From Candidatus Pacearchaeota archaeon (GTDB lineage Archaea > Nanobdellota > Nanobdellia > Pacearchaeales > GW2011-AR1), in contig JBNLBP010000001.1 in NCBI GenBank assembly GCA_050302495.1, positions 127,269-191,268 on the forward strand: a stretch of 64,000 nt of DNA. Direction: 5' to 3'. The notes under the pieces were generated by a model, which was not told where the DNA came from, searched no databases, and worked only from the letters and a program-made list of their open reading frames with translations. Numbering within the stretch: the first letter of the stretch is position 1; the number at the start of each line of letters is the position of its first letter. This document shows, in pieces, positions 2,528 through 23,396 of the stretch. Made by a program: the position numbers and the translations under genes.

Positions 2528-3289
2528 ATGGGTGAGATTCAAGACAAAGAGATAATTTCAGAGTTATGTGGGGCAATAATTGGCGATGGGTGGATCCAAT
2601 CAAATGAGAGGTGTTTCTTTCTTGCAGGAGATCCTACAGAAGATAGAGATTACTATGATTCCCACATTCCAGAAATATTTAGAAAGGTTTTGATAACTGT
2701 GACTCCAAAAGAATTCCCCTACTGGAGTGTCTATGGCATTTCAATATATAAGAAAGACATAATTCAGAAATTACTTTCTTGGAATATCCCCAAGGGCAAA
2801 AAAGTTGACACTGCAAGAATTCCAAACTGGATAAAGAAATCAGAGGATAAAGTTAAGAAAGCGTTCCTTAGAGGATTCTTTGATGCTGATGGAAGCATCT
2901 TCTGTCAAAAAGATTATACCAAATACGCGAAGGAATTTAATTCAAAACATCATGTTAAGGCTAGATTGAGAATAACAAGTATCTCAAGTAATCTTGTAGA
3001 TGAAATGAAGGGAATGTGTGAGGAAGTAGGGTTTAAAGTAATAAGAAGGACAATTAAAAGAGGGAGAATAAGTGAACGTAATTGTAAAGATATTCACATA
3101 ATTGAGATAAATCATTTGGAGAGTATAAGGAAATGGTTTGAAGAATTGAAGCCCTCTAACCCCAAACACACTACAAAATATCGGATATGGAAGAAATTTG
3201 GCTTTTGTCCTCCAAAAACGACGCTAATTCAGAGGAAAGAAATACTTAAAAATGAATTAAGCCCTTATTCATTCTATATGCAGGAGTAG
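2528..3289 (+). CDS. LAGLIDADG-family homing endonuclease (double-motif, free-standing)
   Basis: Two LAGLIDADG motifs read directly in the translation: ELCGAIIGDGWI and AFLRGFFDADGSI. At 253 aa it fits a monomeric two-motif enzyme. The stop codon overlaps the first 10 nt of tRNA-Leu. Confidence 0.8.
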   Translation: MGEIQDKEIISELCGAIIGDGWIQSNERCFFLAGDPTEDRDYYDSHIPEIFRKVLITVTPKEFPYWSVYGISIYKKDIIQKLLSWNIPKGKKVDTARIPNWIKKSEDKVKKAFLRGFFDADGSIFCQKDYTKYAKEFNSKHHVKARLRITSISSNLVDEMKGMCEEVGFKVIRRTIKRGRISERNCKDIHIIEINHLESIRKWFEELKPSNPKHTTKYRIWKKFGFCPPKTTLIQRKEILKNELSPYSFYMQE

Positions 3290-3459: not shown

Positions 3460-3831
3460 ATGATAAAATCAAAAACAAAGATATCGAAGCAATTAGAAAG
3501 AAAAACTAATCCAGAATTAGTCGAAACAATACTATTAGCTAAGAAGAGTGCTTCTTGGTTAGAAATTGCATCAATCTTGTCAGGATCTAGAAGAAAGAGA
3601 ATTAATATTAATCTAAGTGATTTAAGTAAAAGTATTGAAAGTGAGAAAATAGTTCTTATTCCCGGAAAAGTATTGTCTGAAGGAGAAATGGATAAAAAAG
3701 CAAAGATTGTTGCCTTAAACTTCTCTGAAAAAGCAAAAGAAAAGTTGATAAAAGCTGGATGCGAAGTTTCAAGTATACTAGAGGAAATTAAATCAAACCC
3801 TGAAGCTAAGGGTATTAAGGTGTTAAAATGA
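3460..3831 (+). CDS. rpl18e: 50S ribosomal protein L18e
   Basis: 123-aa basic protein. It begins the conserved archaeal L18e-L13-S9 cluster. Its end overlaps the L13 start by 4 nt. Confidence 0.75.
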   Translation: MIKSKTKISKQLERKTNPELVETILLAKKSASWLEIASILSGSRRKRININLSDLSKSIESEKIVLIPGKVLSEGEMDKKAKIVALNFSEKAKEKLIKAGCEVSSILEEIKSNPEAKGIKVLK

Positions 3832-4217
3832 AGGTAGTTGATGCAACAAATTATCCAATGGGAAGACTTGCAAGCTTTGTAGCAAAAGAAGCTTTGAAGG
3901 GGGAAGAAGTAAAGGTAATCAATTGTAACAAAGTCTTGATAACTGGAAGTAGAGAATATGTTGAAAAAGAGTTCCAAGTTAGAAGGGGAAGATATGGAAG
4001 TTCTCAAAAAGGACCAAGAATTTCAAAATCAAACGAACAAATAGTTAAAAGAACAATAAGAGGTATGCTTCCAAACTTTAGAGAAGGAAAAGGAAGAGAA
4101 GCTTACAAAAGAATAATGTGTTATAATGAAGGTTTAGGTGAAGAAGTTAAAGAGATTGTAACTCTTGGAAAAAGAAAACCAAAGAAATCAATTAAATTAG
4201 AATCAATGAGAAAATGA
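3828..4217 (+). CDS. rpl13: 50S ribosomal protein L13
   Basis: Translation MKVVDATNYPMGRLAS...VINCNKVLITG is typical uL13. Position is conserved, between L18e and S9. Confidence 0.85.
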   Translation: MKVVDATNYPMGRLASFVAKEALKGEEVKVINCNKVLITGSREYVEKEFQVRRGRYGSSQKGPRISKSNEQIVKRTIRGMLPNFREGKGREAYKRIMCYNEGLGEEVKEIVTLGKRKPKKSIKLESMRK

Positions 4218-4612
4218 AAGTAATCACATCAGGAAAAAGAAAGACAGCTATTGCAAGAGCTATACTTGAAGAAGGAACAGGAAAAGTTACAATAAATGGT
4301 CAAGATTACAAGAAATTACAAGAATTTGATAAGTTGAAATTGGAAGAGCCATTAAGAATAACTGAGAACATATTAGGAAAATTGAATTTCAATGTTGCAA
4401 TAAAAGTTAGAGGCGGTGGAGAAAAATCACAAGTTGAAGCATCAAGACTGGCTTTAGCAAGAGCAATTGTTGAATTTACAAAATCAGAAAAAGTAGAAGA
4501 TGCTTTCTGGGATTATGATAGAAATCTTCTTGTTGCTGATGTAAGAAGAAAAGAAGCTTACAAGCCTGGTGATTCCAAAGCTAGAAGTAAGAGACAGACA
4601 TCATATAGATAG
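4214..4612 (+). CDS. rps9: 30S ribosomal protein S9
   Basis: C-terminal ...KPGDSKARSKRQTSYR is the uS9 signature. 4-nt overlap with rpl13. Confidence 0.85.
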   Translation: MKVITSGKRKTAIARAILEEGTGKVTINGQDYKKLQEFDKLKLEEPLRITENILGKLNFNVAIKVRGGGEKSQVEASRLALARAIVEFTKSEKVEDAFWDYDRNLLVADVRRKEAYKPGDSKARSKRQTSYR

Positions 4613-5855: not shown

Positions 5856-6410
5856 TTATTCAGAAATTTTTCTTCTTTTAGTTAAGGTATCTAGTTTATC
5901 TTGTACTTTATTAAATAATATTGAAGATACAATTGGTTTATGATCTGCTTCATGAATTTGACCATCAAATTTTATCTTTCCTATATAAGCAAAATTTCTA
6001 AGTATTTTCTTTAAACCATTTACGGAAAGTTGGTGTTTTTTTGATAGTGTGTTTAAGTTCATTCTTGGTTGTAAGAACTCTTCGAATATTTCTTCTACCT
6101 CTTCATAGTTTTGAGCTGGAACTAAAACTCCTGAATCATGATTTCTTTTATACCCAAATGGTGCTCTAGACATGTGTAATCCTTTAGAAGATTTCTTTAT
6201 CATCCCAATTTTTTGATTTTCCCCACGGAACTTAGAATATTTTCTTAAAGGTTCAAGATTCTTTTCAAGGATTTTTTCTTCAATATATACATCTAATTCT
6301 TCGGGAGTATTGGGGGAGAAAGTATGGCAAATACTACATAATGTTAGTCCAAACTTACTCTTGTTCTTATCCGAAACATACCCGCATTTTACGCATTTAC
6401 TTTCATTCAT
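5856..6410 (-). CDS. zinc-ribbon protein carrying a serine-recombinase-type recombinase (DNA-binding) domain, without a resolvase catalytic domain
   Basis: N-terminal CxxC...CxxC (CVKCG...CSICH). The remainder matches the recombinase-domain pattern of large serine recombinases (APFGYK...VLVPAQNYEEVEEIFEEF...LKKILRNFAYIGKIKFDGQIHEADHKPIVS..LFNKVQ). Its start overlaps the 3' end of the tyrosine recombinase gene by 8 nt. Confidence 0.55.
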   Translation of the reverse strand: MNESKCVKCGYVSDKNKSKFGLTLCSICHTFSPNTPEELDVYIEEKILEKNLEPLRKYSKFRGENQKIGMIKKSSKGLHMSRAPFGYKRNHDSGVLVPAQNYEEVEEIFEEFLQPRMNLNTLSKKHQLSVNGLKKILRNFAYIGKIKFDGQIHEADHKPIVSSILFNKVQDKLDTLTKRRKISE

Positions 6411-7242
6411 TTTGCATCAATCCATCTATAGGGGATTTTATTTTTTTTAATTGTTCCGTTGAAACGTGAGCGTAAATTTCTGTGGTCGCAAGGTTACTAT
6501 GGCCAAGAAGAGTTTGTATAAATCTTATGTCTGTTCCATTTTCTAATAAATGTGTTGCAAAAGAGTGTCTTAAGGTATGGCAGTGAACATCTTTGTTTAT
6601 TCCTGCTTTTTTTGCTGTATTTGAAACTATTTTTTGCATATTTCTAGGAGTAAGTTTTCCCTTTGGACCTGAGAAAATGTAAACTTGGTTGAATTCTTTT
6701 TGATTTTTAGCACGATTTTTTAGATCTTCATATAAGAATTCGGGAATATTAAACATACGATCTTTCTTTCCTTTAGCTTGTTTTACATAACCTATCTTAT
6801 TATCAAAATCTAGATCATCTATTTTAAGACTAACCAGTTCTGAAACCCGAAACCCACAAGCATACATAAGAGACATCATTAACCTTGATTTCTTATTTGA
6901 AGCGACATCAAACATCCTTTTGACTTCTTCTTTTGTTAAAACTGCAGGGATTCTTTTTTCTCGTTTTGGTCTTTTAATACCTTGAGTTATATCTTTTTTT
7001 AGAATATTTGAATAAGCATATTTAATTGCGGATAAGAAAACAATCGTTGAACTTGAACTTGAATCAGATAATCTCTCAACTAAGAAAAGTTTTAGATCGT
7101 CTTCACTCATATCATCTGGTATTTTATTTGTAAATATGAATAATTCATTGTTTGCTCTTAGATAGTTTCTTAAAGTATAATTGGAATTTTTAGAGATCTT
7201 CAGTTCTATTTCAAGTTTTTTTAGAAATTCTTCTGGAGTCAT
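6403..7242 (-). CDS. xerA: tyrosine recombinase, XerA/XerCD-like integrase family
   Basis: C-terminal catalytic signature HTLRHSFATHLLENGTDIRFIQTLLGHSNLATTEIYAHV. R (RVSEL) and K (GKKDR) are also present. Confidence 0.85.
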   Translation of the reverse strand: MTPEEFLKKLEIELKISKNSNYTLRNYLRANNELFIFTNKIPDDMSEDDLKLFLVERLSDSSSSSTIVFLSAIKYAYSNILKKDITQGIKRPKREKRIPAVLTKEEVKRMFDVASNKKSRLMMSLMYACGFRVSELVSLKIDDLDFDNKIGYVKQAKGKKDRMFNIPEFLYEDLKNRAKNQKEFNQVYIFSGPKGKLTPRNMQKIVSNTAKKAGINKDVHCHTLRHSFATHLLENGTDIRFIQTLLGHSNLATTEIYAHVSTEQLKKIKSPIDGLMQNE

Positions 7243-7243
7243 A

Positions 7244-7909
7244 TTATTTCTTAGGGGCTTTTAGGAAAAGATTTTTCCAAACAGGCTGTTTAAACAGCTG
7301 TTTATTATCTTTGAAAACTATTGTATTTATTCCTAATTTAGAAGCGGGTTTTGTATTCCAAACTTGATTATCAATAAATAATATATTTTTTGGTTTTACC
7401 CCTATTTTTTTTATTAAAAGTTTGAAGATCTCAGGATTTGGTTTTCTCATTCCAGCGTCGCAAGATACAATTATATCATCAAAATTCTTGTAAAGTTTTG
7501 GAGGCATTAGTGCTTTCTTAGATAAAACCCATTGATCTGATAAAACACTTACATTATATCCTAATTTTTTTAGTTTAGATGCCTGATTAAACAGCCATTC
7601 ATTTTGTTTGAAATGTTTTTTGTAAGAATTTATGTATAAACTTCTTACTTTCTTTTCTGAAATTTTGAAGTTTTTTGAAAGTGTAGAAACAACTCTTTCT
7701 GGAGAGATTTTACCTTCTATTGCAAGTGCATAAGTCGTATCTATAGCATCAAGATATTGATCCAATGAAATCTTAAGTTTTTTTGCAATATCTGTGTGTA
7801 CTCCAGATGGAATTAATTTTCCAGATTCTAATTTAGAACTTTCGCCTAGAGCAAGAACTCCGCTTACATCAAAAACAATGGATTTTATGTTGAGATCACC
7901 TTTTTTCAT
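7244..7909 (-). CDS. HAD-superfamily hydrolase
   Basis: N-terminal IVFDVSGVL (motif I-like). C-terminal ILFIDNQ (motif III/IV-like). 1-nt spacing to xerA. Confidence 0.5.
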   Translation of the reverse strand: MKKGDLNIKSIVFDVSGVLALGESSKLESGKLIPSGVHTDIAKKLKISLDQYLDAIDTTYALAIEGKISPERVVSTLSKNFKISEKKVRSLYINSYKKHFKQNEWLFNQASKLKKLGYNVSVLSDQWVLSKKALMPPKLYKNFDDIIVSCDAGMRKPNPEIFKLLIKKIGVKPKNILFIDNQVWNTKPASKLGINTIVFKDNKQLFKQPVWKNLFLKAPKK

Positions 7910-10633: not shown

Positions 10634-11227
10634 ATGGATAAAAAAGAGGGAATTCTTGAATTATTTTTAGGATTGATATTTGTTGCATTATTAGTTATTA
10701 TTTCTATTTTGGTTATTGGTATGGCTGATGGGAAACAAACAGCTGTTCAAACATCAAACAGCATCCAAAATTCTTACAATGTTAATTCCTACAACCAGGT
10801 TGTCCAAAAAATTCCTGTAGAGACAAGTGCGGCTAGGAATGTTCCGGTTACCAAAAGGTTTGTTGAAAGGCCTGATTATGGCACTCATATAGTAAGTTAT
10901 GTTCGAAAAGGTTATACGAACTCTGACAACTATCAGAAAAGCCAATACCTTAGATACACTAGTTACGGAGAGCATACACAAGAAAAAACCTTTTTTAATA
11001 ACTACAGGGACGAATTTAATGTTTATGTAGTTAATAAGGATTATGCCGGAGGGTATTTTAAGGTAAAATTCGCTTTTTGTGATTATTATGATAATTGTTT
11101 CTCTGAAACCATAGAAAAATATATTCCAGCAAAAGAGGAAGCGAAGTTCACATTCATGGATGTGCAGAACGAGCGATATAAGTACCACAATTGGGAATAT
11201 AAGGTGTTTCCAGATGTTTTGGACTAG
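10634..11227 (+). CDS. membrane-anchored hypothetical protein
   Basis: N-terminal TM helix (ILELFLGLIFVALLVIISILVIG), then a Y/N-rich ectodomain. Contains an AAACAGCTGTT palindrome. Confidence 0.45.
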   Translation: MDKKEGILELFLGLIFVALLVIISILVIGMADGKQTAVQTSNSIQNSYNVNSYNQVVQKIPVETSAARNVPVTKRFVERPDYGTHIVSYVRKGYTNSDNYQKSQYLRYTSYGEHTQEKTFFNNYRDEFNVYVVNKDYAGGYFKVKFAFCDYYDNCFSETIEKYIPAKEEAKFTFMDVQNERYKYHNWEYKVFPDVLD

Positions 11228-11311: not shown

Positions 11312-11971
11312 TCAATAATTTTCATATTTTGGGTCAAAAAATCCACTTCCTTTATGTTTTGAGAAGAGATCTTCCTTAGGTTCATCAAAAGAATTTGCAC
11401 TTAGGTTATGTTTGTTTTGTTTATTCAGTTTTGCAGTCTCATTTATATTGAATGCGAGATTTGCAAGCTCTGTTGGACTTGGAAAATAATAATTTGTATT
11501 TAAGGTATGTAAGAAATCACTCTCTCCAGAATCAACTTTTGAAGGGGATAGTTTTGTGCTCATATCAGTCGTATGGCCTGCGTCTTTTTTATCAACTTCA
11601 TAATCAATGCCCTTTATTGCACTTAGGTTATGTTTGTTTTTATCTCTTACAAATTTGGAGTCTTTGTGTGCGATAAGTAGATTTTGAAGATTTGTTTTAT
11701 TATTTTTATATTCATTAAATTGTTCTTCAGAAATTAAAGCATAATGATCAAACTCCTCAAGAGATATATCCCCATGCCTTTTTAGTAAAGGGAACCATGC
11801 TGATAGCTTTCCTCCCTCTATATAGTGTATGCCTAATGAATTTTCCTTAGGAATTTGGGCAATTAAGTGAGGCTGACGAATGTTTTGAAAATATTGGCCT
11901 TCTAGATTTTCAATTAATTTAGAATAAAGTGTGTGTTCATAAGGAACGACCTTGAACTCTTTATTTGGCAT
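11312..11971 (-). CDS. hypothetical protein with an internal 24-bp duplication
   Basis: Track ORF. Identical 24-mer TTGCACTTAGGTTATGTTTGTTTT at 11394 and 11617, encoding an NKHNLSA repeat. Confidence 0.4.
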   Translation of the reverse strand: MPNKEFKVVPYEHTLYSKLIENLEGQYFQNIRQPHLIAQIPKENSLGIHYIEGGKLSAWFPLLKRHGDISLEEFDHYALISEEQFNEYKNNKTNLQNLLIAHKDSKFVRDKNKHNLSAIKGIDYEVDKKDAGHTTDMSTKLSPSKVDSGESDFLHTLNTNYYFPSPTELANLAFNINETAKLNKQNKHNLSANSFDEPKEDLFSKHKGSGFFDPKYENY

Positions 11972-12346: not shown

Positions 12347-12539
12347 AGTGATTGTTAATTCTATCTCTATTTAAAGATTTAGGCTCTAGAATTTCTGAAT
12401 AATTAATAGAACTGCCAGGATGTTGCACTTAGGTTAAGTTAGTATTCTTACTAAAAAATATTGTGAAAATTTTGATTTTAAAAGAATAGTTTTTAATTAT
12501 TTAGTAAATTATTTTATAAAATGACCAAAGAAAATTAGA

Positions 12540-12790
12540 TAAACACCTGTTTAAACAGCGTTTTATCGACGGTGTAAGAACTTGGGTATTTAAGGGTGTT
12601 TGACAGGTTGTTGGAGGTGTTTGAACAGGTGTTGGATAATATTTTGTGTTTTGGGTGATTCTTAAACAGCTGTTTATAGGTGTTTGTAGCTGTTTAGAGA
12701 TGTTTAAACAGGGTGTTTGTTTGTTTTTTTCAAAATAAACGGGTGTTTAAGGGTGTTTATTATGTAAAATTTTATGTTAAAAATAGTGTA
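12540..12790. repeat. intergenic array of GGTGTTT / CAGGTGTT iterations interleaved with CTGTTTAAACAG and AAACAGCTGTTT palindromes
   Basis: At least six exact GGTGTTT copies. Palindromes at 12547-12558, 12662-12677 and 12701-12711. Confidence 0.7.
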
Positions 12791-12865
12791 AAAATTAGCA
12801 TAGAAAAAGGCTTTTTATCGATATAAGAAAGAAAAGTTTATAAACATGCTTTCTTTGTAATTACT

Positions 12866-13507
12866 ATGTTTGGATTATTTTCGAGAAAAAAAGAGATTGA
12901 TGAAGTTAAGGAAGATACAAAAAAAGGATTTGAATCTGTAAAAAAAGATATTACGGCTGTAAGCGGATGGATTAAACACCTAGATTCTGAGCGAGAAATG
13001 CAAAAAAAAGACATTTCTGAGGTTAAAGAAATTTTATCGTCGGTTCAAGAAGAGCTTGAAAGTCTCAAGAACGTGTTTTCTATGATGAATCAAACAGGTG
13101 TTTTGCCAAAAAACAAACAGGTGTTTAAAACACCTGGTAGGGTGTTTGAAGAACAAACAGGTGTTTATGCTGTTCAAACAGGTGTGCAAACGGCTGTCCA
13201 AACACCAAATTTAGAGCAATTTTCAATAACAGAGAGAGCAATTATATGGGTTATGCTAAATAGTGATATGAAGCTTAGTTATGATGATATAGCTGCTATG
13301 TTGGGAAAGGAGAGATCTACTATAAGAGGGCAGATAAATACAATAAAATCAAAGAGTGAGGGCTTAATTGAAGAGGTAATAGAGAAAAATGGTAAAAAAA
13401 GAGTGTTTATACCTGAGAAAATGAAGGAAATAATGCTCAAAAAGGCGAAAGTGAGAGTTAATAAACAAAAAAACGCGAAAAAAACTAAAAAAGTGAGTGA
13501 ATATTGA
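12866..13507 (+). CDS. coiled-coil / QTGV-repeat / C-terminal winged-HTH protein (paralog of 13702..14589)
   Basis: N-terminal K/E coiled coil. Middle region is made of AACAGGTGTTT nucleotide repeats (QTGV peptide repeats). C-terminal HTH-like LSYDDIAAMLGKERSTIRGQINTIK. Confidence 0.5.
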   Translation: MFGLFSRKKEIDEVKEDTKKGFESVKKDITAVSGWIKHLDSEREMQKKDISEVKEILSSVQEELESLKNVFSMMNQTGVLPKNKQVFKTPGRVFEEQTGVYAVQTGVQTAVQTPNLEQFSITERAIIWVMLNSDMKLSYDDIAAMLGKERSTIRGQINTIKSKSEGLIEEVIEKNGKKRVFIPEKMKEIMLKKAKVRVNKQKNAKKTKKVSEY

Positions 13508-13660
13508 AAGAAAATGAGGGTAAAAATGCTAAAAAATAAAGAAAAAGTGAGTGTTTTACAAGAGAATAGGGGCTCGAGTAAAAGCTTAGAAAAAGTGAGG
13601 ACTAATTTATCGACGGAAACAACGTAAAAGTGATAGATTTACAAGATAAAAGAAGTGATA
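13445..13660. repeat. AAAGTGAG iteron-like direct repeats (about six copies at 25-55 bp spacing)
   Basis: Copies near 13447, 13488, 13543, 13592, 13627 and 13653. They span the 3' end of the 12866 gene and the convergent intergenic spacer. Confidence 0.6.
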
Positions 13661-13701
13661 TGAATAGTCAAAGTAATTAATCGGTGTAACGAGAATCGTA
13701 A

Positions 13702-14589
13702 TTAAATATCTCTTAATTGAATTATTGTTTGTAGACTAGCAACTTTCTTTAAATCAGAAGAGACACTTAACTGGATAGACTTGTTATTTATCTTAGTTTT
13801 ATCGACGGGGATACCTTTCTTTATTAGTCTTCCAATATAATCCCTGATGGAGCTCTCTGTAAGCCCTAAAATGCTTGAAATAGCCTTATAATCAGCATAT
13901 CCTTCTTCTTCACATAATTGATATAATGTAGTGAATACTGTCATCTCTTGATCAGTGAGTCTTTTGAACTTTAGACGTATTTCTTTCTTCAAGTTATCAA
14001 GAGAGTTGAGAATTGTCATGGCATCCTTTATTGGGCTTGAAGGAGTCATTTTAGGTATGTTTTCTTGATTGTACGAACTATTATGTGTCTGTTGGTGTGT
14101 TTGTCTGTTTGTCTGTTTGTCTGTTGGAACCCCCCCATTTCCTGTGGAAATACCTAAATTTTGGGGTTCTAAGGGCTTAATATGTGTCGAATCTGTCGAA
14201 TTATGTGTCGAAATAGAGTCATTTATGTGTTGGATTGTCGAATTATGTGTCGAAGCCCTTTTAACAGGGATTTCAGGAGTGTTGGAATATGTGTTTGTCT
14301 GTTTGTCTGTTTGTCTGTTTGTCTGTTGGATAAGTATTTCAGGGTTATTTGGAGAAGAAAGAATACTTGAAAGGGAGTTTTTTTTGGATTGAAGTGTATT
14401 CTCTTTCAGTGATTTAACAATTTCTTTAATCTCATTTAAATCAGAAGAAGTATTATTTAAAGAATCTTTCAATGAGCATATCTCACCATACAAAAAGTCA
14501 ATATCTTCTTTAACTCTCAAAAAGGCCTCTTTTATTTCTTCCATTATTTCAAAAGAGGTATTAGATATAAAAAGATTAAGATAATCCAA
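13702..14589 (-). CDS. coiled-coil / tandem-repeat / C-terminal winged-HTH protein (paralog of 12866..13507)
   Basis: Same architecture as the 12866..13507 gene. C-terminal HTH-like YADYKAISSILGLTESSIRDYIGRLIKKG. Middle region encoded by (TTGTCTGT)n arrays and GAATTATGTGTCGAA repeats. Confidence 0.5.
   Translation of the reverse strand: MDYLNLFISNTSFEIMEEIKEAFLRVKEDIDFLYGEICSLKDSLNNTSSDLNEIKEIVKSLKENTLQSKKNSLSSILSSPNNPEILIQQTNRQTDKQTNTYSNTPEIPVKRASTHNSTIQHINDSISTHNSTDSTHIKPLEPQNLGISTGNGGVPTDKQTNRQTHQQTHNSSYNQENIPKMTPSSPIKDAMTILNSLDNLKKEIRLKFKRLTDQEMTVFTTLYQLCEEEGYADYKAISSILGLTESSIRDYIGRLIKKGIPVDKTKINNKSIQLSVSSDLKKVASLQTIIQLRDI
14085..14340. repeat. intragenic tandem arrays: (TTGTCTGT)4-5 at 14090-14135 and 14293-14335, and GAATTATGTGTCGAA x3 at 14181-14255
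   Basis: Read directly. On the coding (minus) strand these give KQTNRQT and STHNS peptide repeats. Confidence 0.75.
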
Positions 14590-14597
14590 GATAATGT

Positions 14598-14867
14598 TTA
14601 ATTTGCTAGCTTCCTATAAGAAGAATATGCTTTATCAGATAGTTTCCATCTTGATCGTTTCAAATAAGGTATACCTGAAGGATTTTTCTTTATTTCATTA
14701 ACAAGACCTTTCTTTTTTAGCCTAAGTAATAAAGTTTTGGTGAATTCTTCATCCCTCACAACTTCATGTGCAACATTAATTGTGAAAACTGCTTTAGGAG
14801 ATATAGAAAATAGATATGAAATGATTTGTTCACATATTCTCTCTTTTTTTTGTTCTGAAATACGCAT
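14598..14867 (-). CDS. small basic protein, possible winged-helix DNA-binding
   Basis: 89 aa, directly upstream of 13702..14589 on the same strand. K/R-rich C-terminus. Confidence 0.35.
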   Translation of the reverse strand: MRISEQKKERICEQIISYLFSISPKAVFTINVAHEVVRDEEFTKTLLLRLKKKGLVNEIKKNPSGIPYLKRSRWKLSDKAYSSYRKLAN

Positions 14868-15813: not shown

Positions 15814-15985
15814 ATAATAATAATAATAATAATAAATTATTATATATAACACCCCCACCCCATTACTTCTTATGGAAATATTTAAAAAGAAATTGATTGA
15901 CTTTTTCTTTTTTATTTTATTTAAAAAAATTTATATTATATATTATATATATAATATAAATAATAATAATAATAATAATAATAAT
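15814..15985. repeat. (AAT)n microsatellites (about 7 and 8 units) within the origin AT-rich region
   Basis: aataataataataataat runs at 15814-15836 and 15957-15985. Confidence 0.8.
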
Positions 15986-16146
15986 TGTTCTATTTGGTGA
16001 TTATTTAGAAATTGTTCTCCATAGGAAATAAAGGTGTTTTTATTTCTTAGTGATTATAATCCTTTATATAATAAACTCCGTTTTCTCCGTTGGTTATGTT
16101 CCTTTGGAGGTATTTTCCACAGGAAATAAACGTGTGGGTGTGATAA
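15845..16146. promoter_or_regulatory. predicted chromosomal replication origin (oriC): AT-rich unwinding element flanked by ORB-like dyads, immediately upstream of orc1/cdc6
   Basis: ORB-like elements TCTCCATAGGAAATAAAGGTG (16015-16036) and TTTCCACAGGAAATAAACGTGTGGGTG (16124-16150). A third copy lies on the opposite strand at 15849-15880 (TTTCCATAAGAAG..GGGGTGGGGGTG) with a G-string. A >90% A+T stretch containing an (AAT)8 run sits between the inverted elements (15881-16010). An inverted core TTCCTTTGGA is at 16100. Confidence 0.6.
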
Positions 16147-16148
16147 AG

Positions 16149-17360
16149 ATGGCATTAGATATTGATGGTTTGTTTAACTCTTTTCATAAAGAGGGTATAT
16201 TCAAAGATAAAAGCTTACTACAAATAAACCATAAACCTGAAGAGATTCCTCATAGGGATGAACAGATAAAGCAAATTGTTTCTATTCTGGCTCCTGTACT
16301 TAGGGGTGAGAAACCTAGTAATCTTTTTGTTTATGGTAAAACTGGTACTGGTAAGACTCTTTCTGTTCAATTTGTTCAAGATGAATTAATAAGGAGATTC
16401 TCTAGAGAATCTGATTTTAAGCTTAGAATTGAATATTTAAATTGTAAACTTAAGAAGATTGCTGATACAGAATATAGAATCCTTGCGGAATTAATTAAGA
16501 AACTAGGTGGTGAGGTTCCTGAGACTGGCTTGCCTACTCAGTCTGTTTATGGTAAATTTGTAGATTTAGTAGATACTGAGAAACAATTGATTGTTTTAGT
16601 TTTAGATGAGATCGATCAAACTGTTAAGAAAATTTCTAGTGACTTTCTTTATAACCTTACTAGATTAAACTCCGAATTATCTAAAACTCAAATTTGTGTG
16701 GTGGGTATTAGTAACAATCTTACTTTTTTGGATGAATTAGACCCAAGAGTTAGAAGTTCACTGAGTGAAGAGGAGATAGTTTTTCCCCCATATAATGCTG
16801 TTCAGTTGCAAGAAATTTTGAATAAGCGTTCAAATGTTGCATTTAGGGAAGGTATTGTTGAAGAAGGTGTTATTGCTAAGTGTGCTGCTTTTGCTGCTAG
16901 AGAGCATGGTGATGCTAGAAGAGCATTAGATCTCTTAAGAGTTGCAGGGGAATTGGCTGAAAGAGCGGGTTCTGAAAAAGTTTTACTCGAACATATAGAT
17001 CAGGCCAATGATAAAATAGAAAAGGACAAGATTTTGGATATTGTTGAATCTGAACCTAGGCAATTTCAACTTGTATTATACTCCATTATAAATCTAATTG
17101 AGAAAGATAAAGATCATTCTATATTTACAGGAGATGTTTACAACTATTATCAGGATTTATGTTCTAAGAATCGATCAGAAGTTCTTACTCAAAGAAGAGT
17201 CTCAGATATAATACAAGAATTTGACATGTTAGGTATCATTAATGTAAGAGTTATTTCTAAGGGTAGAGGTGGGAGAATGAGGGAAATAAAGTTAGCTATT
17301 TCAAATAATATATTAAATAAGGTTAAAGAGATCATTGAACACTCTCTTAATTATAGATAA
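16149..17360 (+). CDS. orc1: Orc1/Cdc6 replication initiator
   Basis: AAA+ Walker A GKTGTGKT. Walker B VLVLDEID. C-terminal winged helix. N-terminal MALDIDGLFNSF...INHKPEEIPHRDEQ is typical of Cdc6. The ATG at 16149 is preferred over the track's alternative start at 16050, which would run through the ORB elements. Confidence 0.9.
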   Translation: MALDIDGLFNSFHKEGIFKDKSLLQINHKPEEIPHRDEQIKQIVSILAPVLRGEKPSNLFVYGKTGTGKTLSVQFVQDELIRRFSRESDFKLRIEYLNCKLKKIADTEYRILAELIKKLGGEVPETGLPTQSVYGKFVDLVDTEKQLIVLVLDEIDQTVKKISSDFLYNLTRLNSELSKTQICVVGISNNLTFLDELDPRVRSSLSEEEIVFPPYNAVQLQEILNKRSNVAFREGIVEEGVIAKCAAFAAREHGDARRALDLLRVAGELAERAGSEKVLLEHIDQANDKIEKDKILDIVESEPRQFQLVLYSIINLIEKDKDHSIFTGDVYNYYQDLCSKNRSEVLTQRRVSDIIQEFDMLGIINVRVISKGRGGRMREIKLAISNNILNKVKEIIEHSLNYR

Positions 17361-18940
17361 TGGGTGATGAAATTGTTAAATTTTGTTTTGAAAGGGGCTT
17401 ATTATTAGATAATGAAATACTTGATTTGTTTAGACAGGAGAATGATTTTGAATCGGTCAAATTAGTTATAGAGAAAATAAAGAGTAAAACTCAAGAGAAA
17501 ATAATTACTAGAGATGTTCTATCTGTTAATCAGGAGAAAATAAGACAGGTTTTTTTGGAACTTCCTTATGAAAAACAGAAAATACTTGAGAATTTGAAAA
17601 TAAAGTTGGGTTTGAGCATAGAAATATCTAGAGAGATTAAACAAGAGGTAAGCACTTCTTTTAATTTAGAAGAACCAAGTGTTAAAATTTTTGATTCTCC
17701 TAAGCTTGTTGAGAAGAAGTTAGAAGTTCAGGATTTTACTAAGTATTTTAGGTCTAGATTTGATCAAATGAAGGGGGTTCTTATGACCCATTCCGCTTTG
17801 AATAATCTTGTTTCAATAAATAAGATTTCAGGTAATAGGTCTAATTTTTCCTTGATTGGCATTGTTAGGGATAAAAGTGTTACTAAAAATAAAAATCTTA
17901 TGTTAGAGGTTGAAGATTTTACTGGAAAAATAAAGGTTCTTATTAATCAAAATAAGAAGGAAGTTTATGAAGAAGCACAAGATATTGCTCTTGATTCGGT
18001 GTTAGGGTTTAGTGGTTCAGGGAATAGTGAGATATTTTTTGCTAATGAGGTTATTTTTCCAGATTCTATGCTTCCAGAGAGAAAAAAGGCTTTTGTGGAG
18101 GAATTTGCTCTTTTTATTGGGGATTTACATTTTGGAAGTAAGAGGTTTTTGAGAAAAGGTTTTGAGAATTTTATAAATTATATTAATGGCGATGCTGGTA
18201 ATAGAGATGAAGTAATGAAGATAAAATATCTTTTTTTAGTGGGAGATGTTGTTACGGGTGTTGGAAATTATCCTAATCAAGAGCCTGATTTAGAAATAAA
18301 TGATCTTGAGGAACAGTTTACTCAATTGGCAGGCTTGTTGGGGAGGATAAGAAAAGATATTAAGATTATTATTTCTCCTGGAAATCATGATGGTGTTAGA
18401 ATTATGGAACCTCAACCCTTACTCAATGAAAAATATGCTTGGCCTCTCTTTGATATGGATAATGTGATTATGACTACAAACCCTTGCAATGTTAATATTG
18501 CTTCAAGGGAAGGATTTTCTGGTTGGGATATTTTGACTTATCATGGTTTTTCATTTCCTTATTATGCTGGAAATATACCTTCTTTAATAAAAAAGAAGGC
18601 TATGAATTCCCCTGAAGAAATTATGAAATTTTTACTCAAGAATAGACATCTTGCTCCAACCCATGGTTCTACCCAGTATTATCCTTTAGAAGAAGATTCT
18701 TTGTTTATAAAAAAGGTCCCAGATATATTGGTTTCTGGACATACTCATAAAGCAGGTATTGTTTACTATAATAATATCCTAATTATTTCAGTTGCTTGTT
18801 GGGAAGGGATGACTCCTTATCAGGAGAAGTTTGGTAATAAACCGGATCATTGTAAGGTTCCAATGGTTAATCTTAAGACAAGGTCTGTTAAAATTCTTGA
18901 TTTTGAGGATCTTGAAGAGACTGAAGAGAAAAGCGTTTAA
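17360..18940 (+). CDS. DNA polymerase D small subunit (DP1, 3'-5' exonuclease, calcineurin-like phosphoesterase)
   Basis: MPP motifs GDLHFGS, GNHD and GHTH with an N-terminal OB-like region. 1-nt overlap with the orc1 stop. Confidence 0.88.
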   Translation: MGDEIVKFCFERGLLLDNEILDLFRQENDFESVKLVIEKIKSKTQEKIITRDVLSVNQEKIRQVFLELPYEKQKILENLKIKLGLSIEISREIKQEVSTSFNLEEPSVKIFDSPKLVEKKLEVQDFTKYFRSRFDQMKGVLMTHSALNNLVSINKISGNRSNFSLIGIVRDKSVTKNKNLMLEVEDFTGKIKVLINQNKKEVYEEAQDIALDSVLGFSGSGNSEIFFANEVIFPDSMLPERKKAFVEEFALFIGDLHFGSKRFLRKGFENFINYINGDAGNRDEVMKIKYLFLVGDVVTGVGNYPNQEPDLEINDLEEQFTQLAGLLGRIRKDIKIIISPGNHDGVRIMEPQPLLNEKYAWPLFDMDNVIMTTNPCNVNIASREGFSGWDILTYHGFSFPYYAGNIPSLIKKKAMNSPEEIMKFLLKNRHLAPTHGSTQYYPLEEDSLFIKKVPDILVSGHTHKAGIVYYNNILIISVACWEGMTPYQEKFGNKPDHCKVPMVNLKTRSVKILDFEDLEETEEKSV

Positions 18941-19595: not shown

Positions 19596-19917
19596 TAAAG
19601 GTGAATTAGTTATGGAATTGATGCATGAAGAGGAAAAGAAGGAAATTTTGAAGATAGGTCTTGTTTATAATGTTCAGGTTGGAGAAAGTAGTGTAAGGTC
19701 AGGTATTTTGACTAGTAAAAATAGAAATGATCTTTATAAAATTCTTGTAAATAGTTTACCTGCAGATAGGATGAATGATCCCCGGATTTATCCTTTTAGA
19801 GAATATTCTTTTGAAAATGATTTGTTGAAAATTCGTTGTTCTTCTGGACCTGAAATTATTTCAAAATATTCTAAGAAATATAGGGAGCTTAAACCGTTTT
19901 TAGAGAAATTAGAATGA
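19585..19917 (+). CDS. hypothetical protein (110 aa)
   Basis: Track ORF overlapping both neighbours by a few nt. No motif. Confidence 0.35.
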   Translation: MINDKGELVMELMHEEEKKEILKIGLVYNVQVGESSVRSGILTSKNRNDLYKILVNSLPADRMNDPRIYPFREYSFENDLLKIRCSSGPEIISKYSKKYRELKPFLEKLE

Positions 19918-22900
19918 AAACTGAAACATATTTTGAAAATTTGAAGAAAGAAGTTGATAAGGTTTATGTAGTAGCAAATGAAGCTAGAAGAAAGGGTTTT
20001 GACCCTGTTGATGAAGTCGAGATACCTTTGGCTATGAATATGGCTGAGAAGGTTGTAGGTATTATTTCTACAGTTTACCCTCAAATGTTGAATTCGGGAA
20101 TATCTAAAAGAATTGTTGAGCTTGAGAAACAATTTGGAAAACTTGATGCTACTGTCTCATTTAAAATTGCGGAAGAAGTTGCAAAACAGAAATTTTGTAA
20201 GTTTGAAAATACTCTTGAAGCAATGGATGCGGGTATACGTGTTGGTTTTGGTTATCAGACAATAGGTGTTGTATCTTCCCCAATTGAAGGATTTACTGGG
20301 TTGAAGGTTCGACATACTAAAGATGGGAAAGAGTATATTGAAGCAAGTTTTTCTGGACCTATTCGTTCGGCTGGAACGACGGCTTCTTGTATTGTTTTGA
20401 TGATTATTGATTTTTTGAGGGAGACTTTTGGTTATGCGAAGTATGATCCTACTGATGATGAAATTAAGAGGGTTTGGACCGAATTAGAGCATTTCCATGA
20501 CCGTATAACTAATTTGCAGGGAATGCCTACAGAAGCGGAAGCATTGTTTTTAGCTGAGAGAATGCCTATACAGGTTGCAGGTGATGCTTCTGAAAGAATT
20601 GAAGTTCCAAATTATAAAAATCTTGAAAGGGTTGATACCGATTTTTTGAGGAGTGGTTTTTGTTTGATTATGGCTGAAGGGTTATCTCAGAAAGCAAAGA
20701 AGGGTTTTAGATTGTATACTAATGCTAAGAAAAATGGAGTAAACATGACTGGTTTTGATTGGCTGGATGAATATCTCGTCTTACAGGAGAAGATTAGTAA
20801 AGGTAAGACCAAATCTGTTAATTCTGTTCCGCCTTATATTAGAGATTTGGTTGCAGGTAGACCTGTATTTGGCCATCCATCGCGAAGTGGAAGTTTTAGA
20901 TTTAGATATGGTAGAGGAAGAAATTCTGGGTTCTCTGCTGCTTCAGTACATCCTGCTACTATGGCAATATCTGATAATTTTATTGCTGTAGGGACTCAAT
21001 TGAAAATAGAGAAACCAACAAAGGGTTGCGCAATAAGTTCTTGTGACTCAATTGATGGCCCTATTATAAAATTATTTAATGGAAGTGTAAAGAAACTCCA
21101 TAATCAACAGGAAGCTAAGCAATATTATCCTGATACAGAAGAAATAATTTATTTTGGAGATATTCTCTTCCCTTTTAGTGATGTTTTGAATAGAAATTAT
21201 AATTTGCTTAAACCTGGTTATGTTGAAGAATGGTGGGAATTGGAGTTGAAAGAGAAAAATCCTTTAGAAGAATATCATGGTTTTAATCTAAAAATTGATG
21301 AAGCAATTAATTTGAGTAAAAAATATGGTGTTGCATTGAATCCTAAATTTATTTTTTATTGGACTCAGATTTCTAAAGAGCATTTTAGGGGGTTGATTGA
21401 TTGGCTGAAATATTCTAAGGTTGATGGAAAAATTATTTTGCCTTACGAAAAGAATAGCAATGAAAAATTTATTTTTGGAAAGAGGGCTTTGGAACTTTTA
21501 GGTATTGAGCATGATGTCACATTAGAACATGTTGTTTTATCTGAATTGAATTCAAAGGCTTTACTGGTGAACCTTGGTTTGAATCTTGATGTTCATTTAT
21601 CTAGAACTTTGAAAGAAGAAATAGATGGTTTGGAGAAAAAGATTAACTTTGATAGCGAAAATATTTTGGAAGAAATTAATAAAGTTTCAGAATTTTTAAT
21701 AAAAGATAAAGCTGGAGATTTTGTGGGTGCACGGATGGGTCGTCCAGAAAAAGCAAAATTGAGAAAACTGACCGGTAGTCCAAATATTCTTTTTCCGGTG
21801 GGTAATGAAGGAGGGAGATTAAGGAGTTTACAAGCCGCTTGTGAAATTGGTAAAGTTTTTAGTTCGTTTCCATTAAATTATTGTGAGAAATGTGCTAAAG
21901 AGACTATTTACCCTAAGTGTGAAACTTGTGGTGAAAAAATCAGGGAGCAATTTTATTTTCCACGTCTTAAGGAGAAGAGTTTTTCAAAAGAGATAGAAGG
22001 TTCGGATAGACCTGGTATGAGGTATTCAGGTAGATCTATTGATATTAATCACTATTATTCTAATGCTTTGGAGCTTTTAAAAATGGATAAGAATGAAGCA
22101 CCCGTTTTGATAAAAGGTATAAGGGGTATGAGTTCAGAAGGTAAGGAAACAGAACATTTGGTTAAGGGTATTTTAAGGGCCAAATATGGTTTGCAAGTAA
22201 ATAAGGATGGTACCATAAGGGTTGATGGGACTGAGTTGCCCGTTACGCATTTTAAACCAAAAGAAGTTTCAGTTAGTGTTGAGAAATTGAAAGAAATTGG
22301 ATATGATTTTGATATATATGGTAAACCTCTTGAGAATGAAAATCAAATCTTGGAAATAATGCCTCATGATGTTATTTTGCCTTGTAGTCCTGATTCTCTT
22401 GATGAGAAATGTGATGATGTTTTTTCTAAAGTTTCTAATTTTGTTGATGAGCTTTTGACTAAATTTTATGGTGTTGGTAATTTTTATAATGTGAAGAAAA
22501 GAGAAGATCTTGTGGGAAAATTGGGTGTTTTTATGGCACCTCACAATTGTGCAGGAGTTGTTTGTAGGTTTATTGGTTTTTCAAAAACCCAAGGGCTTTT
22601 GGCTAGCCCTTATATGCATGCTGCAGTTAGAAGAGATTGTGATGGAGATGAGGCTGCAGTTATGTTGTTGGGTGATGTTTTATTGAATTTCTCAAGAAAA
22701 TTCTTGCCAAGTCATAGGGGAGGTACTCAAGATGCTCCTTTGGTTTTGAATGCTAGGATTGATGCTGGAGAGGTTGATGATCAAATCTTGGATTTTGAAG
22801 CAACACCTGAAGGTCATTACCCTTTATCTTTGTATAAACTTGCAGAACAAGGAAATCATTCAAGTGAAGCTAAAGATGTTGTAATTGTTAAAACTGTTTT

Positions 22901-23396
22901 GAAAGAAGGAAGAGATCCTTTCCGTAATTTGGGTTTTACCCATGATACTTCTGATTTCAATGAAGCAGTTTTATGTTCTTCATATAAATTATTAGCAACT
23001 ATGCAGGATAAAGTTCAACACCAGATGGAATTGGTTGAGAAGCTAAGGAGTGTTGATACTTCTGATACTGCAAGATTGATTATTGAAAGACATTTCATTA
23101 GAGATTTAAGAGGTAATTTAAGAAAATTCTCTCAACAAGAGTTTAGATGCGTTGCTTGTAATGAAATAATAAGAAGGCCTCCTTTGAAAGGGGTTTGTAG
23201 TTCTTGTGGTGGAAAATTGATTTTTACAATTCACGAAGGGGGTATTAAGAAATATCTCGAACCTGCACTAGATTTAGCAAAAAAATATAATTTGTCAACT
23301 TATTTACAACAGAATTTGGAATTGGTTAAGGGCTATATTGATAGTATCTTTGGGAAAGAATTGGAAAAACAAGAGAATATTAGTAAATGGTTTTAG
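19914..23396 (+). CDS. DNA polymerase D large subunit (DP2)
   Basis: 1160 aa. Conserved DP2 blocks and C-terminal Zn-binding CxxC pairs (CVACN...CSSCGG). No intein-sized insertion. Confidence 0.9.
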   Translation: MKTETYFENLKKEVDKVYVVANEARRKGFDPVDEVEIPLAMNMAEKVVGIISTVYPQMLNSGISKRIVELEKQFGKLDATVSFKIAEEVAKQKFCKFENTLEAMDAGIRVGFGYQTIGVVSSPIEGFTGLKVRHTKDGKEYIEASFSGPIRSAGTTASCIVLMIIDFLRETFGYAKYDPTDDEIKRVWTELEHFHDRITNLQGMPTEAEALFLAERMPIQVAGDASERIEVPNYKNLERVDTDFLRSGFCLIMAEGLSQKAKKGFRLYTNAKKNGVNMTGFDWLDEYLVLQEKISKGKTKSVNSVPPYIRDLVAGRPVFGHPSRSGSFRFRYGRGRNSGFSAASVHPATMAISDNFIAVGTQLKIEKPTKGCAISSCDSIDGPIIKLFNGSVKKLHNQQEAKQYYPDTEEIIYFGDILFPFSDVLNRNYNLLKPGYVEEWWELELKEKNPLEEYHGFNLKIDEAINLSKKYGVALNPKFIFYWTQISKEHFRGLIDWLKYSKVDGKIILPYEKNSNEKFIFGKRALELLGIEHDVTLEHVVLSELNSKALLVNLGLNLDVHLSRTLKEEIDGLEKKINFDSENILEEINKVSEFLIKDKAGDFVGARMGRPEKAKLRKLTGSPNILFPVGNEGGRLRSLQAACEIGKVFSSFPLNYCEKCAKETIYPKCETCGEKIREQFYFPRLKEKSFSKEIEGSDRPGMRYSGRSIDINHYYSNALELLKMDKNEAPVLIKGIRGMSSEGKETEHLVKGILRAKYGLQVNKDGTIRVDGTELPVTHFKPKEVSVSVEKLKEIGYDFDIYGKPLENENQILEIMPHDVILPCSPDSLDEKCDDVFSKVSNFVDELLTKFYGVGNFYNVKKREDLVGKLGVFMAPHNCAGVVCRFIGFSKTQGLLASPYMHAAVRRDCDGDEAAVMLLGDVLLNFSRKFLPSHRGGTQDAPLVLNARIDAGEVDDQILDFEATPEGHYPLSLYKLAEQGNHSSEAKDVVIVKTVLKEGRDPFRNLGFTHDTSDFNEAVLCSSYKLLATMQDKVQHQMELVEKLRSVDTSDTARLIIERHFIRDLRGNLRKFSQQEFRCVACNEIIRRPPLKGVCSSCGGKLIFTIHEGGIKKYLEPALDLAKKYNLSTYLQQNLELVKGYIDSIFGKELEKQENISKWF

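Follow-up and report, generated by a model that had tools for sequence, protein, structure and literature searches.

Here we describe two arrays of a short DNA motif, G[GC]TGTTT, that accompany a single gene in a 64,000-nucleotide piece of the chromosome of a Candidatus Pacearchaeota archaeon (contig JBNLBP010000001.1 of assembly GCA_050302495.1; 32% G+C; this whole stretch is hereafter referred to as the window). The gene (12866-13507, + strand) encodes a 213-amino-acid protein that is predicted to consist of a helix, a disordered linker, a winged helix and a lysine-rich tail. One of the arrays lies in the non-coding DNA 5' of the gene (12590-12760, + strand), and the other is superimposed on the codons of the linker (13092-13206, + strand). 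The coding copies are, with high probability, DNA elements maintained by selection at the nucleotide level, because their synonymous sites are frozen, the motif is read in two frames and its variability is confined to the center of the dyad. Autoregulation of the gene by its own helix-turn-helix (HTH) product, which was proposed in the sequence-only reading, an earlier annotation of this DNA, appears plausible. In the literature on replication origins of Pacearchaeota and other DPANN archaea and on the 213-residue protein, we found no description of either the protein or the locus.

Counted on both strands, GGTGTTT occurs 26 times in the window, compared to 9.5 copies on average, and 19 at most, in 100 dinucleotide shuffles, and 14 of these 26 copies are located between 12541 and 13206, that is, in 1% of the window (binomial P = 1.4e-21). 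The enrichment noticed previously at this locus is thus borne out within the window. The earlier count of about six intergenic copies also holds, given that there are seven, six of them on the + strand (12541(-), 12595, 12616, 12679, 12712, 12742 and 12752), and seven more are found within the open reading frame (ORF) 12866-13507 (12974(-), 13097, 13120, 13128(-), 13141, 13160 and 13200(-)). The claim of four or more copies of an 11-mer inside the ORF was too generous: the exact word AACAGGTGTTT is present only three times (13093, 13116 and 13156), and the copy at 13177 is merely AACAGGTGT. The true unit is the dyad AAACAG[G/C]TGTTT, with G[GC]TGTTT as the half-site and with a perfect palindrome, AAACAGCTGTTT, at 12664.

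For the comparative analysis, 80 genome loci were fetched, and in 74 of these, the ortholog of the gene 12866-13507 could be delimited. Synonymous positions were compared across 64 to 74 species-level orthologs, and the codon tallies for the coding repeat come from 64 orthologs, in which the repeat region was set against the remainder of the same genes. The intragenic array comprises AAACAGGTGTTT at 13092, 13115 and 13155, the inverted half-site AAACACC at 13128 and 13200, GGGTGTTT at 13140 and GCTGTTCAAACAGGTGTGCAAACGGCTGTCCAAACACC at 13169-13206, and it encodes the linker NQTGVLPKNKQVFKTPGRVFEEQTGVYAVQTGVQTAVQTP (residues 76-114). Codon choice in this region is nearly invariant. Glycine is encoded by GGT in 103 of 106 cases in the repeat compared to 171 of 527 (32%) elsewhere in the gene, and alanine by GCT in 115 of 116 compared to 105 of 269; the valine codon GTA, which accounts for 168 of 672 valines elsewhere, is never used in the repeat (0 of 256). 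The same bias is seen for glutamine (CAA, 95% versus 65%) and threonine (ACA, 93% versus 61%). A per-codon scan showed that such constraint is limited to the array (residues 85-116) and two short segments, namely, residues 57-59 (TTA TCG TCG) and 196-198 (AAA GTG AGA GTT).

The same DNA word is, furthermore, translated in two different ways. Across the orthologs, AACA[GC][GC]TGTT is read 45 times as AAA CAG GTG TTT (KQ[VL]F) and 154 times as CAA ACA GGT GTT (QT[GAP]V). The earlier assignment of the ORF copies to a QTGV/QTAVQT peptide repeat is accordingly correct for most of them but not for the copy at 13116, which is shifted in frame and translated as KQVF. The sole variable residue of the QTxV unit can be G, A, P, S, T or D, with a codon that nearly always ends in T, and this residue maps to the two central bases of the palindrome, the same bases that vary in the non-coding copies. 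The array coincides with a segment of the protein (residues 78-113) that is predicted to be disordered and yet is among its most conserved parts; this conservation would follow from the presence of the overlying DNA array, and the amino acid repeat (KQVF.., QTGV, VQTxVQTxVQTP) appears to be largely a by-product of the DNA signal. An overlapping gene was considered and rejected: across the array, the five alternative frames are interrupted in the orthologs, apart from one that is open in 12 of the 74. With frozen synonymous sites, two reading frames and both arrays conserved in position, the suggestion of a cis element with a second role as coding sequence is upheld.

In the upstream array, half-sites (G[GC]TGTTT) alternate with palindromes (AAACAGCTGTTT) to give sites at 12595, 12616, 12626, 12664-12675, 12679, 12689, 12698, 12705-12718, 12742 and 12752; the array is preceded by the first dyads, TAAACACCTGTTTAAACAGC, at 12540-12559, which show the same arrangement in the orthologs. 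Over the 74 loci, the density of G.TGTTT on either strand per 100 bp is 5.0 at positions -200 to -101 relative to the gene start, 2.1 at -300 to -201 and 3.9 at +200 to +299, against a background of 0.11; in the same loci, G[GC]TGTTT and AAACAG[GC]TGTTT are enriched about 45-fold at -300 to -100, with additional enrichment at +100 to +400. At least three upstream units are present in 71 of the 74 loci. The median spans are -272 to -134 for the upstream array and +243 to +283 for the strict coding sites, and the palindromes overall occupy -134 to -330 and +225 to +340. The spacing of the upstream units peaks at 10, 13, 20, 23, 30, 33, 43 and 53 bp, so that the units are predicted to lie on one face of the helix. 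The flank consensus of these units is G(71%)[C/G](76%)TGTTT, and the centers of the non-coding palindromes are GC in 57 cases, GG in 42 and CC in 3.

The order of the elements upstream of the gene is fixed: a CACTTAGG..CTAAGTG palindrome (at about -350), the first dyads, TTTATCGACGG, the phased units, a second TCGACG and a TATA-like box. In the window, the latter is TTTATAAA (12837-12844, + strand), about 25 bp 5' of the ATG, and a TTTAAA/TTTATAAA box was found at the equivalent place in all inspected upstream regions; we infer that it is the promoter. The comparison of orthologous loci showed that the repeats are retained in both arrays, at the same positions, across the 74 loci, and the two-array arrangement is kept even in homologs that are 44-53% identical to the window protein. 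The other origin proposed for the repeats, namely, expansion over the gene boundary, is not supported. Between the arrays lie approximately 330 bp of non-repeat DNA, with the TATA box and codons 1 to 75; homologs with as little as about 45% protein identity preserve the layout; and the units are phased and resemble binding sites rather than a slipped tandem repeat.

The dyad symmetry and helical phasing of the units fit a dimeric winged-helix protein, such as the one encoded by the gene, with its long helix. An AlphaFold2 model built from an alignment of 23 sequences consists of a single long helix (residues 2-77), a segment with a predicted local distance difference test score (pLDDT) below 50 (78-113), a winged HTH (wHTH) domain (121-191) and a disordered lysine-rich tail. 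Sequence searches against Pfam, NCBIfam and PDB yielded no above-threshold match, just sub-threshold HTH and coiled-coil hits. The wHTH domain superposes best on MarR-family regulators, with MepR, SlyA and MarR as the best structural matches (Foldseek E ~1e-4), and the recognition of palindromes and the common autoregulation in that family are further points of resemblance to the predicted behavior of the window protein. Nevertheless, we rejected membership in the MarR family. Only the wHTH core superposes (TM score 0.3 for the query and 0.47 for the target), there is no Pfam MarR match, and the architecture differs in that the MarR-type dimerization helices around the wHTH are missing, with a 76-residue N-terminal helix and a 36-residue disordered linker instead.

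A word-indexed search detected 2,645 homologs of the protein, all in metagenome-assembled genomes of Pacearchaeota, Woesearchaeota or Nanoarchaeota. The family appears to be restricted to this group because an exhaustive search yielded only 290 cluster representatives at 50% identity. The median identity to the window copy in the same loci is 68% for this protein, 73% for Orc1 and 58% for the small subunit of DNA polymerase D (PolD), which suggests that the protein is conserved about as well as Orc1 in Pacearchaeales and Woesearchaeales. A mobile-element origin was rejected: no relatives were found in viral contigs, and the conserved 18-mer TGTTTAAACAGGSTGTTT has a single, chance match, in a GC-rich virus. 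A very distant relative (locus L096; 24 identities in 135 aligned positions) has a linker without a repeat. Upstream of its gene (2760-3000 of that locus), different words are repeated, with GACGTCTACGACG present twice and CGTCGA several times, which suggests that upstream site arrays might be a general habit of the wider family.

A divergent branch of the family, here denoted subfamily B, provides a comparison of sites and recognition helices. In this subfamily, the recognition helix is VT[VI]RRH[IM]ND, as opposed to STIRGQIN in the window-type proteins, and the linker repeat is (S/T)FMNV(Q/A/H), with a different perfect palindrome, CGTTCATGAACG, as the underlying DNA. This palindrome is present three to four times per subfamily B gene, in the linker-coding DNA only, and nowhere else in loci L082-L087. 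The codons are again frozen, in this case as minor ones: TTC in 13 of 13 cases, AAC in 13 of 13, and TCG, ACG or CCG at the variable residue. The place of the sites, in linker-coding DNA, thus stays constant while the word changes together with the recognition helix, which would be predicted under self-recognition.

Taken together, these results can be cast as a simple model. Under this model, both arrays are double-stranded DNA binding sites maintained by purifying selection on nucleotides: approximately 6 to 12 helically phased, non-coding sites located 130-330 bp 5' of the start codon, and 5 to 7 sites overprinted on the codons of the disordered linker at +225 to +340. The binder would be the winged-helix product of the gene itself, as a dimer or oligomer formed via the 76-residue N-terminal helix. 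Oligomers on both arrays could bridge them, so that the promoter and the initial third of the gene would form a loop; alternatively, the bound protein could block the elongating RNA polymerase; in either case, the outcome would be negative autoregulation. A few additional sites, for example, upstream of an Xer-type recombinase gene, would define a small regulon, and the arrays are probably also part of an origin-proximal nucleoprotein region. We consider the whole of this statement, in which selected DNA arrays are bound by the gene's own wHTH product and act in autoregulation, to be evenly poised between right and wrong, with the identity of the binder, the choice between looping and roadblock, the sign of the regulation and the link to the origin being the more conjectural components.

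Intragenic operators that act through looping are known from Escherichia coli, namely, gal OI in galE and lac O2 in lacZ. As in these systems, two sets of sites flank the promoter, one of them intragenic, and an oligomeric repressor could bridge the two. The gal and lac operators, however, are solitary, belong to a structural gene farther downstream and are not apparent in the sequence of its product. In the window, by contrast, the sites form arrays within the gene of the putative regulator itself and determine a conserved repeat in the protein.

Two further occurrences of the motif bear on the possible targets of the protein. A composite site, CCAAACAGGCTGTTTAAACAGCTGTTT, at 7277-7303 lies 37 nt upstream of a gene for an Xer-type integrase (6403-7242, - strand), overlapping the 3' end (codons NKQLFKQPVW) of a HAD hydrolase gene (7244-7909, - strand). 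Among 32 other loci, 6-7 have a comparable composite site 5' of the gene for the Xer-type integrase, which hints at a small regulon and favors the interpretation of the protein as a transcription factor. The second occurrence, in the gene at 10634, had been taken for a related element. The element is indeed present (AAACAAACAGCTGTTCAAACATCAAACAGC, 10733-10762, + strand, encoding KQTAVQTSNS), but it is missing in all 16 orthologs of that gene and hence is a lineage-specific insertion, conversion or convergence, or else due to chance. In this copy, the 21-nt sequence AAACAAACAGCTGTTCAAACA matches the linker-array consensus at every position and is in the same frame (KQTAVQT), just past the membrane anchor of an otherwise unrelated protein.

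Several observations weigh against the autoregulatory model. The co-variation between the motif and the recognition helix comes from two clades only. The upstream regions of subfamily B share no 8-mer with the linker palindromes and contain no upstream array; looping between two arrays therefore would not be universal, and an intragenic roadblock would suit both subfamilies. None of the upstream sites covers the TATA box, where simple archaeal repressor sites are usually located. Other DNA-binding proteins of the same conserved block, namely, the paralog of the 213-residue protein, the 89-residue product of the gene at 14598 or Orc1, could be the binder. Finally, the constant linkage to orc1 and oriC, together with an origin recognition box (ORB) in the paralog's linker, points to a role beyond transcription, and a connection between the arrays and Orc1 binding may exist because the first ORB beside orc1 is followed by GGTGTTT, at 16033.

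The gene indeed belongs to a conserved block, in the order: repeat array, the gene itself (+), its paralog (-), an 89-residue protein gene (-), a 146-residue protein gene (-), a PRC-barrel protein gene (-), orc1 (+) and the gene for the PolD small subunit (+). The paralog is present in 80 of the 80 loci, and orc1 in 60 of the 80, at about 3.2 kb from the gene. In the window, the Orc1/Cdc6 gene is located at 16050-17360 (+ strand), the gene for the PolD small subunit at 17360-18940 (+ strand) and that for the large subunit at 19914-23396. An oriC-like region is found upstream of orc1 (15850-16145), where inverted ORBs surround an AT-rich stretch. It comprises an inverted ORB that is imperfect and has a G-string (15850-15879), the AT-rich stretch with (ATA)n (15880-16010), ORB1 (16014-16040, core at 16018), in which the dyad is followed by the GGTGTTT mentioned above, and ORB2 (16112-16145, core at 16116). 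The ORB consensus near orc1 is TTTCCATAGGAAAT-nnA-GTGT, which can be written as TTTCCA[CT][AT]GGAAAT-nnA-GTGT and contains the ORB core, TTCC...GAA (Matsunaga et al. 2007, PMC1904270). This is the standard layout of an origin, and we predict that the region is oriC. The GGTGTTT arrays are located 2.8-3.5 kb from orc1 in 60 of the 80 loci and do not adjoin the AT-rich element. Because ORB2 falls within the ORF as called, the true start of orc1 is probably farther downstream than the GTG at 16050. The GC skew across the window is dominated by gene strand and is uninformative with regard to the origin.

The paralog (13702-14589, - strand), which is convergent with the gene 12866-13507, has a coiled coil, a repeat-containing linker and a wHTH domain. 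Its linker-coding DNA contains a canonical ORB, TATTTCCACAGGAAAT-GGGGGGGTTCCA (14124-14153, - strand), encoding ISTGNGGVP. The consensus of this element, TATTTCCACnGGAAATnAAGGGGTTCCA, that is, TATTTCCAC[A/T]GGAAAT-nAA-GGGGTTCCA, encodes ISTGNxGVP and is 97-100% conserved, third positions included; the glycine codon is GGG in 62 of 63 cases. The element is near-invariant in about 65 of the 74 loci, and the variable bases at the center of the dyad switch a residue between threonine and isoleucine. In the 74 loci, matches to TCC[AT].[AT]GGAAA concentrate at two places only, the paralog's linker and the region beside orc1.

These findings bring up the possibility that the arrays are iteron-like origin or initiator elements and that the two paralogous genes are part of an extended oriC in which initiation, by way of assembly, titration or timing, rather than transcription is controlled, with the linker-coding DNA carrying assembly sites for the genes' own products and Orc1, as in RepA_N plasmids. 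We regard this explanation as tentative. It would account for the location of the conserved block, with orc1 within about 3.2 kb in 60 of the 80 loci, for the near-invariant ORB in the linker-coding DNA of the paralog, and for the proximity of the origin at 15850-16145, with its ORBs and DNA unwinding element. It is also in line with the Orc1-like conservation of the 213-residue protein, the weak match of the paralog to HTH_36, a fold of some plasmid initiators, and the 10-bp phasing of the direct repeats, as in iterons. The GGTGTTT arrays, however, lack the ORB dyad (TTCC..GGAA), and a complete canonical origin is already present 2.8-3.3 kb away. Moreover, in subfamily B loci, the 3 kb downstream contain no orc1, and the extra sites, being promoter-proximal to another gene, are better explained by a transcription factor.

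The closest precedents come from plasmids and from Pyrococcus. In pSK41, the Rep boxes, which are the origin, lie centrally in rep, in the DNA that encodes a linker dispensable for the protein (PMC5703833). The RepA_N replicons, typified by pSK41 and pAD1 among the theta plasmids of Firmicutes, are the functionally closest design, in that the predicted sites for a wHTH protein are central in its own gene, in linker-coding DNA, with the linker subordinate to the DNA signal. The differences are substantial, and membership in RepA_N was rejected: the wHTH is C-terminal, a Pfam scan at E<=0.1 gave no match to RepA_N (PF06970), and the gene is a chromosomal, vertically inherited DPANN core gene next to orc1 and polD, without plasmid or viral relatives. 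In addition, there is a non-coding array upstream, and the role in an origin is only a candidate one. In Thermococcales, an Orc1-bound ORB cluster is embedded in the coding sequence of dp1, which encodes the PolD small subunit, 1.5 kb from oriC in Pyrococcus (PMC1904270). The likeness lies in initiator-type elements, ORBs and mini-ORBs, overprinted order-wide on coding DNA 1.5-3 kb from oriC, near orc1/cdc6, and the ORB inside the paralog appears to be the same kind of element. The GGTGTTT/AAACAGSTGTTT units differ in that they have no TTCC..GGAA core, and the gene that hosts them encodes a DNA-binding protein with whose recognition helix the motif switches. We therefore rejected the identification of the arrays themselves as ORBs or mini-ORBs; the elements at 14124-14153, 16018 and 16116 do have the core. 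A still more specific proposal, which we advance with considerable reservation, is that the two convergent coiled-coil/wHTH paralogs are unrecognized origin factors of Nanobdellota (Pacearchaeales and Woesearchaeales), with their genes inside an extended oriC; the DNA for the disordered linker would, in each gene, hold the assembly sites of the origin complex, with arrays of the self-recognized palindrome in one gene and an Orc1-type ORB and (ACAG)n in the other.

It seems improbable that the arrays form a centromere-like site for partition or chromosome organization, with the protein as an anchoring or bridging factor, as in ParB/parS, RacA/ram or ParR/parC, that loads on origin-proximal site clusters, one of them inside its own gene. 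The clusters do lie near the origin, and the promoter is bordered by phased repeats, direct as well as inverted, a feature of parC-type centromeres. One of the parS sites of Bacillus subtilis lies within spo0J. The protein combines a long coiled coil, an HTH and a lysine-rich tail, and it shows a weak full-length match to the HTH_ParB profile (E = 0.021, 15.4 bits, below the cut-off of 22.6 bits). There is, however, no ATPase of the ParA/SegA type in the conserved block, no partner system was found, and the fold search gives MarR-type winged helices. Identity with ParB was rejected, given the sub-threshold profile match, the absence of a ParB N-terminal (CTPase) domain and the absence of an adjacent ParA-type ATPase. 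In the plasmid partition systems, such as ParR-parC of R1 and the omega heptads of pSM19035, proteins bind cooperatively to arrays of sites. The resemblance is that short repeats, both direct and inverted, form arrays around the promoter of the operon that encodes the binding protein; the locus in the window differs by the lack of a nearby partition ATPase, the other protein fold and the coding nature of one array.

The constraint on the coding array might act instead on RNA, through mRNA structure or a motif bound by a protein or small RNA, or on a peptide with a marked local preference for certain codons, the upstream copies being unrelated. In support, most of the units and the 3' AAAGTGAG repeats described below are strand-specific, and the peptide repeat is strongly conserved. 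We nonetheless find this explanation highly unlikely. The motif is conserved in non-coding DNA 5' of a TATA box that is itself 25 bp from the ATG, it is a dyad that also occurs inverted (AAACACC), and the upstream array is phased at 10 bp. Further, a single DNA motif yields two peptides via two frames, the alternative frames are closed, and the changes at the variable position are non-conservative (G/A/P/S/T/D), with the third base remaining T. RNA structure in particular was rejected because RNAalifold, applied to 16 orthologous coding arrays, gave -4.5 kcal/mol and 0 compensatory pairs. Chance or functionless expansion by neutral slippage, for which the low-complexity, T/G-rich sequence in an AT-rich genome and the lineage-specific copy in the gene at 10634 could be adduced, is refuted by the comparative data, with binomial P ~1e-21, none of the 100 shuffles reaching 26 copies, and position, phasing and sequence maintained across 74 species-level loci and at protein identities as low as 45%.

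The two arrays are not the only motifs of this kind, and neither this locus-wide pattern nor the tie to orc1 and oriC had been noted in the sequence-only reading. At least four further conserved words overlie the paralogous genes and the DNA beside them, the most striking of which is the Orc1-type ORB. Another is TTTATCG[A/T]CGG, or TTTATCGACGG, with copies at 12561, 12813-12825 (just 5' of the TATA box), 13032-13043, 13606 and 13798, that is, at -300, -60, +170, +740 and +930 relative to the gene. The first of these is the TTTTATCGACGG element (12561-12572, + strand), and the coding copy, TTTTATCGTCGG (13032-13043, + strand), spans the codons TTA TCG TCG for L57, S58 and S59. In the 74 loci, TATCG[AT]CG peaks at -300, -100, +100 to +200 and +700 to +1000. 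Codons 58 and 59 are TCG in 92% and 86% of the orthologs, respectively, against highly mixed serine codon usage across the gene, and the last copy provides the codons P-V-D-K of the paralog, using CCC GTC. This element thus has five copies within 1.3 kb, all at positions that the orthologs share; two of the copies are coding, and TCG is a rare codon. A second regulator, possibly the paralog, may bind here.

Six copies of AAAGTGAG(AGTT) extend from the end of the gene toward its convergent paralog (13448-13665, + strand); the first is coding (K V R V), and the others are in the 3' intergenic DNA. The form AAAGTGAGAGTT is found on the + strand only, extending from the last codons (K-V-R-V) into the 3' intergenic region, in subfamily B as well, and AAGTGA[GT] likewise is seen on the + strand only, at +400 to +800, in 46-71 loci. 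In the coding copy, GTG is used in 99% and GTT in 89% of the orthologs. This repeat is more widely conserved than the palindromes; its longer form, AAAGTGAG(AGTTAA), is strand-specific, with 10 copies at 3590-4400 of the subfamily B locus L082. A conserved hairpin similar to AGTTATTC...GAATAACT follows the repeats at about 13676-13705 in the window, at the end of the convergent paralog. The linker of the paralog, in turn, is encoded by DNA with (GTCTGTTT)n runs (14087-14127 and 14290-14328, + strand) and three copies of ATGTGTCGAA (14182-14254, + strand). In the (ACAG)n/GTCTGTTT codons, GAC is used in 115 of 116 cases, AAC in 42 of 42 and CAG in 72% in the DRQT repeats.

The left edge of the conserved block is marked by an imperfect palindrome, TTGCACTTAGG-TTAA-GTTAGT (12418-12445, + strand). 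The word CACT[TA]AGGT is found at -400 to -300 in 47 loci, on the + strand only, and recurs approximately every 400 bp farther upstream. The general form of the palindrome, TTGTGCACTTAGG-TTAn-CTTAGT(GCA), has copies at 11398, 11620, 12040 and 12426 in the window, all on the + strand. In loci L001-L080, it is present two to five times per locus, at -300 to -1500, in constant orientation and about 400 bp apart, in a stretch of small ORFs whose gene content differs between genomes; two of the window copies lie within the ORF 11312-11971 (- strand), and each encodes NKHNLSA. Such an element could act in recombination, in the manner of the sites of cassette arrays, or serve as an operator for the small variable genes. 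A separate word, TTGT(G/A)CGAAC(T)T, directly precedes TATA-like boxes (TTTATAAA/TTTATATA) upstream of Xer-type recombinase genes in loci L011, L026, L040, L045, L048, L049, L051, L052 and L070, is also found at about 11262 in the window, and may be a clade-specific promoter or an element proximal to the transcription factor B recognition element. An Rfam scan of the window detected two tRNAs and nothing else.

Dual coding in nature is seldom as clean as at the locus described here, where the conserved protein repeat of a core gene is the shadow of a DNA signal. The locus also carries a caution, namely, that conserved low-complexity linkers need not be protein-level features. The two pairs of recognition helix and palindrome constitute a testable recognition code for an uncharacterized, phylum-wide DPANN DNA-binding protein, and the ORB consensus, along with an ORB that is embedded in coding DNA, establishes the cis-anatomy of this phylum's origin region. 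If the arrays act at the origin, the logic of an origin inside the initiator gene would extend from Gram-positive plasmids to archaeal chromosomes. If, furthermore, the paralogous genes are parts of an extended oriC, the expression of origin factors would be coupled directly to origin occupancy, and the locus would be a cellular counterpart of the RepA_N design.

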